Positions 3,272 to 64,000 of a stretch of DNA of 64,000 nucleotides are shown here, in pieces. The stretch is from an uncultured bacterium. GTDB taxonomy: Bacteria > Chloroflexota > UBA5177 > JANWHV01. The notes beneath the pieces are model-generated. The model was not told the DNA's origin. It worked only from the letters and a program-made list of their open reading frames with translations, and did no database searches. The DNA is taken from assembly GCA_963729625.1 (NCBI GenBank), contig CAVSOU010000011.1:128001-192000 (forward strand), given 5' to 3'. Positions within the stretch are counted from its first letter, which is position 1. Each line of letters begins with the position of its first letter. Position numbers and translations under genes: made by a program.

Positions 3272-4177
3272 TCACGTCGATTCGTAATAGACCCAACGCC
3301 GCGCCCCCAGGATGAGAATCAGCGTGGCCACCAGGATCAGCAGGAAGAGCAGCGTGGCCTGCGCGCTGGCATAGCCGAAGCGCGCGTAGGCAAAGAGGCT
3401 ATTCCACATGTACATCACCGGGAACATCAGTGATCCTTCGGGTGCTCCAACCGAGCTGCCGTAGGCCGTGGACGACAGGACCAGGCCCTGCGTGAAAATC
3501 TGGAAGGTATTGATCATGCCCACCATGAGGTTGAAGAAGGTTGCGGGCGACACCATGGGAATGGTGACATGCCAGAGGCGGCCCCAGAGACCTGCTCCGT
3601 CGACCTGCGCCGCCTCGTAGAGGTGCGCGGGCACTTCCTGCAACGCGGCCATATAGATAATCGTCGTGGTGCCCACGGTCCAGAGAAGGAGAAGCACCAG
3701 GCACGGTTTGGACCACGTGGCGTCGGTGAGCCAGTTCGGCTGCGGCAGGCCGACCTTGCTCAGCCCGACGTCCACCACGCCCAGCTCCGGGTTGAAGAGC
3801 CAGGTCCAGATCAGCGTGACCGCCACTAGCGGCATGAAGGCGGGCAGTACCAGTGCCGCGCGGTATAGGGCCCTGCCTCGGATAGGGAAATTGAGCAGCC
3901 AGGCATGCAGGAACGCCACGATAAGCGTCAGGGGCACCGACACCACCACCATGTAGGCCATGTTGAAGAGTGCTTGCTGGTACATGTCGTCGGATGTGAG
4001 CATGAAGCGGAAGTTGTTGGTGCCAATCCAGCGTGGCGGATCGGCGCCGTTGTAGTGCGTGAATCCCAGATAGGTCGTTCCCACCATTGGATAGAGGGTG
4101 AAGGCGACCAGGCCGAACAGGAACGGGGTCATGAACAGCAAGCCGGTGACCAGGTTACGTCGCATGAGCCGGCTCAT
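3272..4177 (-). CDS. Carbohydrate ABC transporter permease (MalF-like)
   Basis: LQEVPAHLYEAAQVDGA EAA loop; AGGAGG RBS supports ATG at 4177. Confidence 0.93.
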   Translation of the reverse strand: MSRLMRRNLVTGLLFMTPFLFGLVAFTLYPMVGTTYLGFTHYNGADPPRWIGTNNFRFMLTSDDMYQQALFNMAYMVVVSVPLTLIVAFLHAWLLNFPIRGRALYRAALVLPAFMPLVAVTLIWTWLFNPELGVVDVGLSKVGLPQPNWLTDATWSKPCLVLLLLWTVGTTTIIYMAALQEVPAHLYEAAQVDGAGLWGRLWHVTIPMVSPATFFNLMVGMINTFQIFTQGLVLSSTAYGSSVGAPEGSLMFPVMYMWNSLFAYARFGYASAQATLLFLLILVATLILILGARRWVYYEST

Positions 4178-4202
4178 GTTCCTCCTGCCAGCGCTGTGCA
4201 TG

Positions 4203-4232
4203 GCCGGGGCGAGCCGAGCGGCTCGCCCCGGC
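4203..4232. terminator. GC-rich hairpin after the solute-binding protein gene (mRNA stabiliser or attenuator)
   Basis: GCCGGGGCGAGCCG-AG-CGGCTCGCCCCGGC perfect inverted repeat. Confidence 0.6.
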
Positions 4233-4238
4233 TCTCTG

Positions 4239-5579
4239 TCAGATGCCTGAGGCCTGTTGATCGAGCAGTGCCTGCATATCCTTGGTCACCTTATCCAAGC
4301 CGTCCTTCGCCGACATCCGGCCGTGGAGGACCTTGTCCTCGGTGGTGGCCAGCTCAGCGGCAAACTGCGCGGAGATGGGCAGGTTGGGGAAGATTTGGAT
4401 CTGCGCGACACCGGCCTGGTGCACGAACGTGCGGTAGTAGGGGTTCGGATCGAGGTTGTTGCTGGTCAGCGCTGCCTTGACCTGAGGCACGTTGTTGAGC
4501 ACATTGGCGAAGCTCACCGTGGGATCGACGTTCTGGATCCAGAGCAGGTACTGGAAGGCAGCCTCCGGATGCGGTGCCTTGCGCATAATGAAGCCCATGT
4601 TGCCACCGGCCTCCGCGACGTTCGTGTTGCCGCGGGCCGCGGGCACGGGCAGCGGCGCCACGCCGTAGTCGAACGTCTTGGGATTGCCGTACTGCTTGAT
4701 AAACTGCGGGTTCCACTCGCCCGAGATGTACATGGCCAGCTTGTTGCTCAAGAAGAGATTCTGGGGTGTGCCGACGGCCGGGTTATTGTAGGCGCCGAAG
4801 TGATCGACGTTCGACACGCCGACGGTCTGGTAGTACTTCGCCTCCCAGGCCAGCGCTTGCACGCACTGGCTGCAGTTGGCTGTGATCGTCTTGCCGTCGG
4901 AGCTGACGAGCTGGCCGCCGAACATGTTGATGTACACGGGGAGGTATGTGCCCACGAAGTCGGGCCCGCCGTAGGTCGGCAGCATCGCCAGCGAAGTGAT
5001 TTTGCCGGAGGAATCCCGCAGCGTCAGCTTGTTCCAGAGCGCCTGCACCTCCTCAATGGTGCGCGGCGGCTTGTTGGGGTCCAGTCCCGCCTTGCGGAAC
5101 AGGTTCTTGTTGTAGAGCATCATGTAGCAGTCGGTCAGGTACGGCATGGCCCACACGTGGCCGTTGTACGTGATCAACTGGCGGGCCGAGGACGTGAGGC
5201 GATTGAGGTCGAAATGGCTCTGCTGTATGAACGAGTCCAGGTTATGGACCACGCCGTTGCTCGCCCAGGTACCGACTTCGGCATTGCCGCAATCGAAATA
5301 GATATCCGGCGGTTTGCCACCGCTCTCGGCGGTCAACACCTGCTGCACGGTGGCGCCGTAGGTGGCCTTGACCACGATATCCTTCTGCACCTGATTGAAG
5401 CTCTCAGCGATCTTGACGAACTGGGTGCCCTGGTAGCGGTCCGGCCAGCATCCCGCCACGTTGATCACCACAGGCGCCTTGGCGCGCTGGCCCAGAACGG
5501 GGCCGGCGTGGACCTGCGGCACGATCAGGAGAGCGGCGATGAGTGCAGCGCGTAGTAGCCGTGAGTTGCGTGCCATCAC
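4239..5579 (-). CDS. Sugar ABC transporter extracellular solute-binding protein
   Basis: Signal peptide, PPDI, YNKNLFRKAGLDPNKPPRT, AMYISGEW; AGGAGG RBS. Confidence 0.93.
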   Translation of the reverse strand: MMARNSRLLRAALIAALLIVPQVHAGPVLGQRAKAPVVINVAGCWPDRYQGTQFVKIAESFNQVQKDIVVKATYGATVQQVLTAESGGKPPDIYFDCGNAEVGTWASNGVVHNLDSFIQQSHFDLNRLTSSARQLITYNGHVWAMPYLTDCYMMLYNKNLFRKAGLDPNKPPRTIEEVQALWNKLTLRDSSGKITSLAMLPTYGGPDFVGTYLPVYINMFGGQLVSSDGKTITANCSQCVQALAWEAKYYQTVGVSNVDHFGAYNNPAVGTPQNLFLSNKLAMYISGEWNPQFIKQYGNPKTFDYGVAPLPVPAARGNTNVAEAGGNMGFIMRKAPHPEAAFQYLLWIQNVDPTVSFANVLNNVPQVKAALTSNNLDPNPYYRTFVHQAGVAQIQIFPNLPISAQFAAELATTEDKVLHGRMSAKDGLDKVTKDMQALLDQQASGI

Positions 5580-60708: not shown

Positions 60709-61914
60709 TCACGCCTCCGATTCGAGTGGAAGCACGACTCTCATTTCCGTGCCACCATCCGGCGGGAACGCAGCGTCCATCCGTCCGCCGTGCAGTTCGA
60801 CTATCTGGTGCGACACATAGAGTCCAAGACCCATGCCCGAACGATGGGCGCCTGCGTGCGCCTGGTAGTAGCGGTCGAAGATATGCGCGCGCTCCGTTTC
60901 GGGAATGCCGATACCATGGTCGCGAACGTATATCCGTGCCGGCCCATCGGTGTCTCGCGACACGCTAACGGCTATCTCCCCTCCGTCTGGGCTGTACTTG
61001 ACTGCGTTGTCGACCAGGTTCGTGATCACTTGCTCCAGACGCAGGCCGTCCACCGAGGCGATCAGGCTGGCGGGCGCGTGCACGACCAACGTGTGCGCGG
61101 ACGTGCGCGATTGCGCATCCGACGCTACGGTGCGAATGATAGAAATCAGGTCGGTTTGCTTGCGTTCCAGCTGCAGCCGGCCGGCCTCGATACGCGACAC
61201 ATCGAGCAGCTGGTCAACGAGGAGGTTGATCTTCTCCGATTGCCTGGCGATGGTCTGCAGGGCACGACGTACCAGGGCTGTGTCGGGTTCACGCCCACGC
61301 CCGTAGATCCGGTCCAGCGCTTCCGCGAAGCCCAGGAGACTGGTCAACGGCGTCTTCAGCTCATGCGCCGCGACGGAGAGGAATTCGTCGCGCTGGCGGA
61401 CTGCCTCCTCCGCCGCTTCCGCTCGCAGGCGCTCCGCCTCCGCTTGCCTCCGCTCGGACGTATCGCGTATCACCGCCGTGACCAGTGCCTGGCCGTCGGA
61501 GACGAATGAGCTCAAGCTGATCTCGACAGGGAACATGGAGCCATCCTTCTTCCGCCCGTGCAATTCTAGCCCTGCGCCCATCGGACGCACTCGAGGGCTC
61601 TGATGATATCCCGCGCGATGAGTCACGTGGCGAGCCCGGACCAGCTCCGGCACGAGCGCTTCAACTGTCATGCTCAGCAGCTCTTTGCGACTGTAGCCGA
61701 ACATATGCAACGCCTGGAAGTTGACGAAGACAATTCGACCACGTCCGTCGACGGTCAGGATCGCGTCTGGGACGGATTCTAGCAAGTTGCGGAGATACGA
61801 TTCGGTGATGATCGCGTCGTTCGCCAGATCGCTGAGGCCGTCGCCCGAACCCTCGGCTCCGCGGTTGCTGTCGGGCTCATGGTTTGTCGGGAGCTCTCTG
61901 GTGGGTGGTGGCAT
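60709..61914 (-). CDS. Cytoplasmic PAS-domain sensor histidine kinase
   Basis: PAS (PDAILTVD, KDGSMFPVEISLS), HELKTPLT, NLVDNAVKYS, DHGIGI, GMGLGL. Confidence 0.93.
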   Translation of the reverse strand: MPPPTRELPTNHEPDSNRGAEGSGDGLSDLANDAIITESYLRNLLESVPDAILTVDGRGRIVFVNFQALHMFGYSRKELLSMTVEALVPELVRARHVTHRAGYHQSPRVRPMGAGLELHGRKKDGSMFPVEISLSSFVSDGQALVTAVIRDTSERRQAEAERLRAEAAEEAVRQRDEFLSVAAHELKTPLTSLLGFAEALDRIYGRGREPDTALVRRALQTIARQSEKINLLVDQLLDVSRIEAGRLQLERKQTDLISIIRTVASDAQSRTSAHTLVVHAPASLIASVDGLRLEQVITNLVDNAVKYSPDGGEIAVSVSRDTDGPARIYVRDHGIGIPETERAHIFDRYYQAHAGAHRSGMGLGLYVSHQIVELHGGRMDAAFPPDGGTEMRVVLPLESEA

Positions 61915-62447
61915 TGGATCACTCTCCTGCTAACTGGCGAGATCCTGGCCATTGGTGCGGGCTCGGACATGACGCCCTTTCCGCACTGTCGCCACGCGTC
62001 GCTGCTCAGGCATGGCAGACGGTTAGGATAACATTTCTCCTGCCGGCATGGCGGGAATTGCATCGGCGATGGTTACTTGCGGCACTGCGCTCCGGCTGTC
62101 ACTGCTCTGCGGTGGAGCTTTGTCGTCCCTAGGCCAGGTCACCTTGATATACCGCGCTCGTCGCGTTTCGGCAAGGCTGCCGCGTTCCGCATGCCAGCCG
62201 GCAGGCGCATCACATCACGTCGTCCTCACGGCAACTTCTGCTCGCGGCAACCCGCACCCCACGAGCCGTGCTTGCACGAGGTCCGCCCCCTCAGTAAGCC
62301 GCACAGTGTCGATGGCTTTGGCCGAATTGCCCTCAGCCACAAGAGCCGTTGTGCAACATCGCGCTGCTCCCGTATCATGTCGGTCAACCACGGCGTGGCG
62401 CGAGTCCCATGTCCCTAGTGGCACCATTTTGACATAAGGAGTTACCC

Positions 62448-64000
62448 GTGCGCAGGAGTGCACTGCTCTGCGAGACGTTGAGGCAAGCCCCCGCCGACGC
62501 GGAGTTTGCCGGTCATCGGTACCTGCTGCGTGGTGGGTTTGTCCACCCGCTGGCTGCAGGAATATATTCTCTGCTTCCGCTTGGCCTGCGCGTGAAGCGC
62601 AAGATCGAGCGGGTCCTGCGAGAGGAAATGCAGGCAATCGGCGGGCAGGAGATCGTGTTGCCTGTCGTGCAGCCGGCAGATCTCTGGCAGCAAAGCGGTC
62701 GCTGGAGCTCCCTGGGCCCAGAGCTAGCGCGCCTGAAGGACAGAAACGGCCGTGACCTGGCGCTGGCCATGACGCACGTGGAGGCCGTCACCGACGTTCT
62801 GCGCAGGCATGTTCATTCGTATCGGCGGTTGCCTTTACTCGTGTTCCAGATGCAGACGTCGTTTCGCGACGAGCCACGATCGCGTGGCGGCCTGATCGGC
62901 TTGCGCGAAGTCACGATGCAGGATGCCTACAGCGTCGATTTGTCGACCGGCGGCCTCGATTCGTCGTACCAGCGCGTCTACGACGCGTATCTCCGCATAT
63001 TCGCGCGGCTGGGCCTCTCCGTGCTGGCGGTGCGCGCGGACTCGTCGGCGATCGGCGGCTCCGCGGCGCATGAGTTCATGTTCGTCTCCGATGCCGGGGA
63101 AGATACCGTCGTGGTCTGTGACCAGTGTGGCGCGGCCGCCGATCAACGGGTTGCCGTCTTCCGAAAGGACGCGCCGCCTGCGGAGGATCTGCAGCCGCTC
63201 GAACCGGTCGAGACATTGGCGACGCCGACAATCGCCGCGCTCGCCGCTTTTCTCAAGGTGCCCGCGTCGCGCACTGCCAAGGCCACGTTCTTCACGGCCG
63301 ACGGCCGCCTCGTGTTTGCCGTCGTGCGCGGCGACATGGAGGTCAATGAGACAAAGCTGGCCGCGGTCATCGGCGCCGGCGACCTTCGCTTTGCTGCTCC
63401 GGAGGATCTCGCCGGCGCGCGCATCGTGCCGGGCTACGCCTCGCCCATCGGCATCCACGGCGCGATCGTGGTCGTCGACGATCTGGTGGCTCGCTCACCC
63501 AATCTGGTGGCCGGCGCCAATCGCCACGGCTTTCACCTTCGCAATACCAACGTGCCTCGCGACTATCAGCCGGATTTCATTGCCGACATCGTGAAGGTCC
63601 AGGAGGGCGCGCCGTGCGCCGCCTGCGGCGCATCTGTTCGCCTCACGCGGGCGGTGCAGGTCGGTAGCGCTGTCAAGCTTGGCACCCGCTATTCGCGAGC
63701 GTTCGGCGCCACCTGCCTGGGTGAAGACGGGCAGCTGGCGGAGATTGTCATGGGCTCCTACTGTATCAGTGTCGAGCGCCTGATCGCCTGTTTGGCTGAG
63801 GCGCATCACGACGCACAGGGACTGGTGTGGCCGGCTATCGTCGCCCCGTACGACGTGTATCTCGCAGGCCTGGATCTCGAGAACGAGGCGGTGAGGTCGG
63901 CTGCCGACACGCTCTACGGCGAGCTTCGAGCCGCGGGAGTGGACGTGCTCTATGATGACCGCGACGAGCGGGCAGGAGTGAAGTTCAAGGACGCAGATCT
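62448..64000 (+). CDS. proS: Prolyl-tRNA synthetase paralog (bacterial type with INS editing domain), active-site motifs degenerate; 3' end off window
   Basis: Own translation from GTG 62448 (TAAGGAG RBS), open to window end: AGIYSLLPLG, QPADLWQQSGRW, FRDEPR, HEF, GANR, DDRDERAGVKFKDAD. Confidence 0.9.
   Translation, partial: MRRSALLCETLRQAPADAEFAGHRYLLRGGFVHPLAAGIYSLLPLGLRVKRKIERVLREEMQAIGGQEIVLPVVQPADLWQQSGRWSSLGPELARLKDRNGRDLALAMTHVEAVTDVLRRHVHSYRRLPLLVFQMQTSFRDEPRSRGGLIGLREVTMQDAYSVDLSTGGLDSSYQRVYDAYLRIFARLGLSVLAVRADSSAIGGSAAHEFMFVSDAGEDTVVVCDQCGAAADQRVAVFRKDAPPAEDLQPLEPVETLATPTIAALAAFLKVPASRTAKATFFTADGRLVFAVVRGDMEVNETKLAAVIGAGDLRFAAPEDLAGARIVPGYASPIGIHGAIVVVDDLVARSPNLVAGANRHGFHLRNTNVPRDYQPDFIADIVKVQEGAPCAACGASVRLTRAVQVGSAVKLGTRYSRAFGATCLGEDGQLAEIVMGSYCISVERLIACLAEAHHDAQGLVWPAIVAPYDVYLAGLDLENEAVRSAADTLYGELRAAGVDVLYDDRDERAGVKFKDAD

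Follow-up and report, generated by a model that had tools for sequence, protein, structure and literature searches.

The window analysed in this work is a stretch of 64,000 nucleotides (nt) from the genome of an uncultured bacterium of the phylum Chloroflexota (source genome G000, 21 contigs, 87% complete; window at G000:C11:128001-192000), and the gene in question, at its downstream end, encodes a prolyl-tRNA synthetase (ProRS) of the bacterial type (P-type). Conserved residues of the aminoacylation site have been replaced in this gene, the replacements are confined to one species-level lineage, and they fall mainly in the catalytic core. The same genome encodes a second, canonical ProRS of the archaeal/eukaryote-like type (E-type). 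We suggest that the P-type copy may be an incipient pseudo-synthetase, editing-only or tRNA-Pro-binding, and we give this reading a probability of roughly 0.45.

A complete P-type ProRS with an altered charging site

The open reading frame (ORF) starts with GTG at 62448, has no stop up to the window end and continues for 157 nt beyond it, ending at G000:C11:192157, with a full length of 569 amino acids (aa). An earlier reading of this DNA, made from its letters without database searches and called here the sequence-only reading, had described the ORF as uninterrupted over the visible 1.55 kb and as having a strong ribosome-binding site, and we found both to be so (table 1). In the Pfam search, PF00587 (tRNA-synt_2b) is interrupted by PF04073 (tRNA_edit) and followed by PF03129 (HGTP_anticodon). 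The protein matches NCBIfam NF006625 (proline--tRNA ligase) with 608 bits (cut-off 558) and TIGR00409 with 514 bits (cut-off 307); the former score is lower than that of every over-cut-off Chloroflexota match listed, the lowest of which is about 672 bits. Identity to solved P-type enzymes is 38-41%. An AlphaFold model based on a 35-sequence alignment reached a mean predicted local distance difference test (pLDDT) value of 84.5 and kept the full ProRS fold, with template modelling (TM) scores of 0.83-0.88 against solved P-type ProRS structures and of 0.88 against E. faecalis ProRS (2J3L). In architecture, length and fold, the gene product is a full bacterial-type ProRS.

Residue changes were checked by HMMER alignment to the ProRS of S. 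aureus (5ZNJ) and P. aeruginosa (5UCM), and again in a 27-sequence alignment of the protein with 26 relatives. Every motif change listed in the sequence-only reading was found at the position given there, including the AVQVGSAVKLG stretch at 63651-63683. In class II motif 2, TKFRDE has become TSFRDE (K138S) and LIRLREFTMKD has become LIGLREVTMQD (R151G, F155V and K158Q), so that of the fRxE...(R/H)xxxF signature R140 and E142 (FRDE) are kept and the (R/H)xxxF part is lost. The GxGxGxxR pattern of motif 3 is broken (YGIGVER to YCISVER), with R444 kept. The remaining changes, in the TxE loop and in an active-site strand, are given in table 1. The charging site is partly gone (E111, R151, F155, G439, G441), and both catalytic arginines remain.

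The weight of these changes can be judged from an alignment of P-type enzymes with 17 E-type sequences. The position of Glu111 holds Glu in at least 95% of the P-type set and at least 90% of the E-type set, and it is Val here; R151 and F155 are conserved across 140 P-type and the 17 E-type sequences. Together with G439, which is Gly in both types although it falls narrowly below our cut-off for conservation in both, these are four positions with the same residue in P-type and E-type ProRS, and all four are lost. K158Q, E404Q and G441S, on the other hand, lead to residues that are normal in active E-type ProRS, and N407S roughly does so (E-type Thr). Because active E-type enzymes carry them, K158Q, E404Q and G441S are not by themselves inactivating. 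The sequence-only reading had counted these three among the rewritten residues.

We take R151...F155 to be the (R/H)xxxF of class II motif 2, whose Arg holds the gamma-phosphate of ATP and whose Phe stacks on the adenine, and E111 to be the TxE Glu to which the amino group of the substrate is anchored; the glycines of class II motif 3 pack against ATP. In Plasmodium ProRS, F405, the equivalent of the motif 2 Phe, was placed in the adenosine pocket (PMC9403976). Because of R151G, F155V, G439C, G441S and E111V, proline activation is very probably either absent or badly impaired.

The editing and tRNA-binding parts present a different picture. The INS catalytic Lys (K278 in TAKA, 63273-63284), the GxxxP loop (G329-P333 in GYASP, 63432-63446) and His363 of GAN..H are all kept, and so is DDRDERAGVKFKDAD of the anticodon-binding domain (DDRxExxGVKFxDAD pattern). 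The claim that TAKA, GYASP and the anticodon-domain motif are retained was therefore correct, and it extends to the motif 2 Arg (FRDE) and the motif 3 Arg (VER). The editing domain as a whole, however, is not untouched, since it carries the substitutions P257L and G325R.

A second synthetase in the same genome

The E-type gene lies at G000:C7:232399-233817. Its product scores 578 bits against TIGR00408 (cut-off 437), has a ProRS-C_1 domain and a C-terminal Tyr, and shows canonical TSE, RWE, FLRTTEF, QAGTSH and WGLSTR segments, which match the pattern of the E-type enzymes of 16 relatives. A canonical proS thus exists elsewhere in the genome, as the sequence-only reading had thought worth looking for. 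A chimeric bin as the source of the second ProRS was considered and rejected, because G001 and G004, of the same genus (g1), carry both types. The three tRNA-Pro genes of G000 (UGG, GGG and CGG) all have the bacterial C1:G72 and A73. Two single-domain YbaK/ProX-like genes are also present (C14:32247-32756, plus strand; C8:778571-779302, minus strand), both scoring below the NCBIfam YbaK cut-offs.

Within genus g1 (G000, G001 and G004), the P-type protein diverges 2-2.6 times faster than the E-type protein in the same species pairs: identities are 72.4% for P-type versus 89.4% for E-type between G000 and G001, and 60.6 versus 80.8% and 63.6 versus 82.0% in the other pairs. The faster divergence holds even between species with canonical motifs. 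The P-type proS was already an accessory copy before the changes in the G000 species took place.

A further observation on genomes with both types concerns F139, the Phe of TKFRDE that precedes the motif 2 Arg. Of 12 genomes with both ProRS types, four have another residue at this position (I in G004; V in G026; E in both G034 and G022), and it is Phe in all 12 full-length sequences from genomes in which only the P-type was found. Such replacements may be a first indication that the P-type copy is under relaxed constraint.

The changes are real and confined to one lineage

All 24 other full-length P-type genes of relatives are canonical in the motifs, including that of the sister species G001, at 73% identity. 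The closest protein outside the species in a collection of 5.8 billion sequences, P0003, is 81% identical and canonical as well, and the altered motifs occur in none of 140 other P-type sequences. Within the species, protein P0002, from another contig of 6.6 kb, is 99.8% identical, differs only by R48H and has all the altered motifs. Exact matches to residues 143-192 (motif 2), 221-270 (P257L), 337-407 (Q404 and S407) and 415-466 (YCIS) come from metagenome contigs of four runs in three studies, and one contig over residues 421-530 has a single difference, synonymous at Leu449; these contigs are short and of low depth, and they do not cover large parts of the gene. A metagenome scan for close relatives listed 80 loci at 35-53% identity, none of them close. 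An assembly or sequencing artefact is ruled out by these independent copies. Since P0002 and contigs from several runs carry the changes and other sequences do not, the altered allele is real, environmentally spread and confined to one species-level lineage.

The sequence-only reading had called the gene a paralog and had proposed a search for homologs sharing THVE, REV and YCIS. We found instead an ortholog of the canonical P-type proS standing in its original place. The flanks are the same in G001, where the PAS-domain histidine kinase on one side is 74% identical and the tetratricopeptide repeat (TPR) genes on the other are 66-70% identical, and because these flanking genes are shared the ProRS-like gene is the positional ortholog of the canonical P-type proS of G001. 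The conserved synteny also rules out a horizontally acquired paralog.

Erosion is skewed toward the catalytic core

At 164 columns conserved in at least 97% of 117 close homologs, the G000 protein deviates 14 times (12 in the catalytic domain, 2 in INS and none in the anticodon-binding domain), whereas the 117 homologs themselves have a median of 1 deviation and never more than 5. A second division of columns was set a priori with the help of a family of core-less proteins made of INS and the anticodon-binding domain (see below), shared columns being those with the same residue in both groups. At the 95 conserved columns found only in the core, the G000 protein differs at 20, P0003 at 8 and G001 at 7; the maximum elsewhere among the other 140 sequences is 16, in distant lineages. 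At the 90 columns common to the 140 P-type and 119 core-less proteins, that is, in the editing/tRNA module, the G000 protein differs at only 2 (the two INS substitutions named above), P0003 at none and G001 at 2. The difference between 20/95 and 2/90 is significant (Fisher p = 5e-5). Profile scores agree with this picture, the deficit relative to P0003 being 23 bits in the N-terminal catalytic part (225 residues), 14 in INS (170), 26 in the C-terminal catalytic part (73) and 3 in the anticodon-binding domain (92).

A relative-rate comparison with G001 as outgroup gave 52 unique replacements on the G000 branch and 27 on the P0003 branch (p = 0.0066). The excess is seen in both catalytic parts (21 versus 10 in the N part, 9 versus 3 in the C part), and the anticodon-binding domain shows no acceleration (5 versus 6). 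The ratio of nonsynonymous to synonymous substitutions (dN/dS) between G000 and G001 is 0.177/1.06 = 0.167 by the NG86 method, and a three-taxon decomposition made by hand with G004 as outgroup gave about 0.19 for the G000 branch and about 0.14 for the G001 branch, values that are rough because dS is around 1 and thus near saturation. The ORF contains no stops, and no indels relative to P0003. In a neutral simulation, a divergence of about 0.04 per site was required for some 8% of the invariant codons to change, which would bring about 45 extra replacements over the gene and a total of about 72, compared with the 52 observed. Neutrality of the whole gene is disfavoured because of the domain skew, the dN/dS, the number of changes, which is smaller than predicted, and the open frame. 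The sequence-only reading had named strain-unique substitutions with dN/dS near 1 as the mark of a young pseudogene. The changes are indeed confined to one species, but the ratio is far from 1.

Degenerate P-type descendants across Chloroflexota

We surveyed 401 Chloroflexota genomes for P-type and E-type profile matches; the tallies take in the unpublished genomes G018, G056, G337, G188, G265 and G169, and the examples named here are taken from the others. A P-type match over the cut-off occurs in 211 genomes and an E-type match over the cut-off in 233. Another 53 genomes, as read from the per-genome tables, have only a sub-cut-off P-type-like match (E from about 1e-30 to 1e-167), and 50 of these 53 have an E-type ProRS. 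The other three have two partial P-type matches each, which are probably split genes.

Homologs of full or nearly full length, in which the core is destroyed to an increasing degree, are found in G160, G131, G202, G288 and G224, all five of which have an E-type ProRS. FRDE has turned into SWDD or YCGD, REF into RES, and YGIG into YTLR, YEIN or FSIA. In G160, G131, G202 and G288 the erosion is of intermediate extent and takes in the positions of F155, G439 and G441. TAKA, VRGD, PGYASP, GAN..YHLR and DDRDE..GVKFNDAD are intact in all of them. In genus g56, the six orthologs fetched are all about 515 aa long and lack the TxE segment, the motif 2 Arg and the motif 3 Arg, and all the genomes concerned hold an E-type ProRS. 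Mean pairwise identity in this genus is highest in INS (80%), followed by the anticodon-binding domain (72%) and the core remnant (66%), with dN/dS of 0.10, 0.19 and 0.11, respectively.

Complete deletion of the core is seen in family f8 (Anaerolineae according to the source names). The proteins, of about 400 aa, have PF04073 and PF03129 and lack PF00587, and the core-less family comprises at least 120 clusters of some 390-410 aa with 63-98% identity. An E-type ProRS is present in all 25 sampled f8 genomes. In the two loci listed in table 1, L027 and L028, the N-terminal ProRS segment is kept along with INS and the anticodon-binding domain, the class II core is gone, and the local synteny around the gene is conserved between the two genera. 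The sources name such proteins proline--tRNA ligase, YbaK/EbsC family protein or hypothetical protein. Considering g56, f8 and the intermediates, long-lived P-type descendants that consist of INS and the anticodon-binding domain are real and have arisen recurrently beside an E-type enzyme. These older degenerate and core-less forms may act as Ala-tRNA-Pro deacylases.

In family f22, E-type and P-type ProRS genes adjoin on the same strand with the E-type gene upstream. The pair of G202 (G202:C23:1958-3373 and 3421-5088) has a degenerate downstream P-type gene. Adjoining pairs occur likewise in G138, G146, G194, G218, G226 and G274.

A possible pseudo-synthetase in the making, or a gene on its way out

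In the reading that we favour, the E-type ProRS would charge tRNA-Pro in the G000 species, whose P-type copy has lost several key charging-site residues since the split from P0003. The P-type protein would still fold as a class II dimer with its INS catalytic set and anticodon-binding domain, would bind tRNA-Pro, with G35/G36 and the bacterial acceptor end (C1:G72/A73) as points of contact, and would hydrolyse, by means of INS, the Ala-tRNA-Pro produced by the E-type enzyme, which has no editing domain. Both the retained tRNA binding and the retained deacylation we infer from sequence. The gene would then represent an early stage of what the g56 and f8 lineages have completed. Of the repurposed functions proposed by the sequence-only reading, trans-editing gains from the long-lived editing-type P-type descendants of the phylum, and no evidence favours a sensor of the HisZ or GCN2 kind.

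Several observations weigh against this reading, and most of them speak at the same time for a redundant gene in early decay, in which the E-type enzyme would have taken over and the whole P-type copy, relaxed and without function, would be heading to loss. The altered state was seen in one species only, with no conservation across species. INS is accelerated too (17 replacements versus 8 in P0003), it shares in the loss of profile score, and its two substitutions, P257L and G325R, are at positions that are unchanged in every other form with an INS that we examined, the long-lived pseudo-synthetases among them. R48H, the single amino-acid polymorphism seen, sits in a column conserved in at least 97% of homologs. 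Columns conserved in both ProRS types were not preferentially changed (3/38 versus 13/130 for P-type-only columns, p = 1), and the branch dN/dS spans the whole time since the split from G001, not just the time since inactivation. In the neutral simulation the frame stays free of stops about 20% of the time. The two free-standing YbaK/ProX-like genes mean that INS of the P-type protein may be redundant. Loss is a real alternative fate, since no P-type gene was found in the congener G003 (92% complete) or in most other sampled genomes of the genus of G202, where a degenerate copy stands among genomes that give only E-type-level matches. The branch roughly twice as long as that of P0003 and the faster evolution of the P-type within the genus also fit decay. 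Against decay stand the strong domain skew, the anticodon-binding domain without acceleration, the branch dN/dS, the lack of indels and a total of changes below the neutral expectation, as well as the intact ribosome-binding site, the upstream block common to the sister species and the presence of the same allele in several environments. We consider early decay a strong rival, though less likely than the favoured reading. It is uncertain whether the gene is being kept or being lost.

It seems improbable that the protein is still a working ligase, be it a ProRS of weak or conditional activity whose ATP site partly resembles the E-type, or an enzyme with an enlarged, more hydrophobic pocket (V111, S407, A408 and V409) for another substrate. 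The motif 2 residues Arg140 and Glu142 and the motif 3 residue Arg444 are kept, K158Q, E404Q, G441S and roughly N407S are residues of active E-type ProRS, and in Bacillus thuringiensis coexisting P-type and E-type ProRS are reported to be both active (PMC11229370). Nevertheless, R151, F155 and E111, at least 90-95% conserved in both types, are all lost and G439 with them; F155, G439 and G441 are also lost in the clearly dead homologs of G131, G202 and G288; and no biosynthetic genes lie nearby. The loss of R151 and F155 would remove the contacts with the ATP gamma-phosphate and adenine. In a related proposal the pocket has been rewired rather than decayed, so that the protein would have a non-proline substrate, either for ligation or for specific binding, and would still read the tRNA-Pro anticodon; K158Q, E404Q, G441S and N407S would bring the ATP site toward the E-type, and E111V, I408A and F409V would make the pocket larger, more hydrophobic and devoid of its amine anchor. 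We regard this as very improbable, and nothing in our analysis favours the enzyme with a new substrate that the sequence-only reading had offered as its second option. A non-catalytic sensor, chaperone or regulator similar to HisZ or GCN2, which would bind tRNA-Pro through the anticodon-binding domain and the scaffold and would have lost editing as well, has in its favour that the anticodon-binding domain is the only domain without excess change and that INS carries two unusual substitutions. This too appears quite improbable to us, given that the catalytic Lys, GxxxP and His of INS are kept, no partner gene or operon was found and the neighbours lie on the opposite strand, no RNA leader was found, and there is no positive sign of signalling.

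Comparison with known systems

The G000 protein resembles P-type ProRS (NF006625/TIGR00409; 2J3L, 5ZNJ and 5UCM) in architecture, length and fold and in its INS and anticodon-domain motifs. It differs from them in having lost Glu111, R151, F155, G439 and G441, in carrying K138S, N407S, I408A and F409V, and in not being the only ProRS of its cell. With the degenerate and core-less Chloroflexota forms it has in common its P-type origin, the coexistence with an E-type enzyme, the INS Lys/GxxxP/His and anticodon-binding domain that are kept, and the erosion of the charging site, which in part affects the same positions (F155, G439 and G441). Those forms, however, are old, occur across species with dN/dS of 0.1-0.2 and keep P257 and G325, whereas the G000 gene belongs to a single species; they have also lost far more (among other things the Arg of motif 2, that of motif 3, or the core altogether), the G000 gene being minimally eroded.

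The same logic is found in the crenarchaeal ThrRS-ed, whose editing and anticodon-binding domains proofread for a separate charging enzyme, the editing-less ThrRS-cat, although synthetase family and editing fold are different from those of the G000 protein. ThrRS-ed carries a degenerate catalytic domain. The domain picture of ThrRS-ed in a 2024 review consists of an editing domain and an anticodon-binding domain (PMC11295145). ProXp-ala, YbaK, ProXp-x and ProXp-ST1/2 have a homologous editing fold and the same predicted class of substrate, mischarged tRNA-Pro. These free-standing INS deacylases are single-domain proteins of about 160 aa, unlike the three-domain G000 protein with its 569 aa and anticodon-binding domain; according to the same review, members of the INS superfamily other than the INS of ProRS are single-domain, and trans-editing proteins generally lack RNA-binding domains (PMC11295145).

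A second ProRS-type gene is likewise present in Streptomyces (ProRSx) and in B. thuringiensis (ProRS1/ProRS2). These duplicates are active ligases (PMC9437257, PMC11229370), in B. thuringiensis as a P-type and an E-type enzyme side by side, whereas residues of the class II signature are missing from the G000 P-type protein. HisZ functions together with HisG and has no anticodon domain; no partner enzyme is evident for the G000 protein. HisZ is a class IIa synthetase paralog with no aminoacylation activity, as stated in a survey that covered over 2500 prokaryotic genomes, the available part of which mentions only YbaK/ProX as ProRS-related paralogs (PMC5388404). In the table of synthetase duplicates of a 2022 review, only ProRSx is listed for ProRS (PMC9437257). 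Our literature search, with subscription journals and supplements outside its scope, returned no account of a P-type ProRS that is dead or lacks its core. The G000 gene is a minimally eroded, species-specific case of a trend that is recurrent and apparently unpublished.

If the favoured reading is true, the gene would show a synthetase in the course of becoming a dedicated proofreader, and a natural control would come with it: since the relatives at 73% and 81% identity are canonical, a defined set of substitutions can be tested for its effects on activation, editing and tRNA binding. It is of interest mainly as a transitional form for which such controls exist. Together with the older forms, degenerate or core-less, it would point to a branch of the INS editing superfamily whose members have several domains and read the anticodon. 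For annotation, the G000 gene passes the curated cut-off for proline--tRNA ligase and would be named an active synthetase.

Gene surroundings and feature coordinates

Table 1. Features of the ProRS-like gene and of related loci; positions without a locus name refer to the window.
Feature	Position	Strand	Basis
ProRS-like ORF, residues 1-517 of 569 within the window	62448..64000	+	ORF calling, Pfam, NCBIfam, fold model
Shine-Dalgarno AAGGAG, 6 nt 5' of the GTG start	62436..62441	+	direct reading of the sequence
TxE loop T109-H-V111-E, THEE to THVE (E111V)	62772..62783	+	alignments
Class II motif 2, residues 134-163	62847..62936	+	alignments; exact contig of run X2 over residues 143-192
INS editing domain and linker, residues 226-395	63123..63632	+	Pfam and alignment
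Active-site strand EVG(N/H)IF to QVGSAV (E404Q, N407S, I408A, F409V)	63657..63674	+	alignments
Motif 3 YGIG to YCIS (G439C, G441S)	63759..63770	+	alignments; exact contigs of runs X1 and X5
Start of anticodon-binding domain, residue 469 onward, cut by the window end	63852..64000	+	Pfam and column comparison
Upstream block CTCCCGTATCATG, common to the proS leader of the sister species; putative -10 element TATCAT	62367..62379	+	comparison with L004
PAS-domain histidine kinase, 401 aa, upstream neighbour	60709..61914	-	ORF calling, synteny comparison
Core-less ProRS protein, 403 aa	L027:1528-2739	-	Pfam PF04073 and PF03129 only
Core-less ProRS protein, 417 aa	L028:1568-2821	-	Pfam PF04073 and PF03129 only
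Degenerate P-type loci of G160, G131, G202 and G288	L126-L129		
Degenerate P-type loci of genus g56	L130, L132-L136		

The PAS histidine kinase gene is divergent from the ProRS-like gene, with a spacer of 533 nt, and the downstream neighbours, which encode TPR proteins, are on the opposite strand. No biosynthetic genes, partner gene or operon were found in this neighbourhood, and an Rfam search of the 5' region of the gene revealed no T-box and no other RNA leader. The upstream block may hold a -10 element, although a promoter scan of the locus did not call it, its sole match being inside the ORF.

In the same upstream region, 70 bases of the window (62348-62417, corresponding to L001:1401-1470) are matched exactly by a contig of 269 nt from run X1, the sequence of which is unlike that of the window on both sides of the match. 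The 70-nt stretch is unique in the G000 genome, and the contig could be an assembly chimera or could reflect a strain rearrangement.

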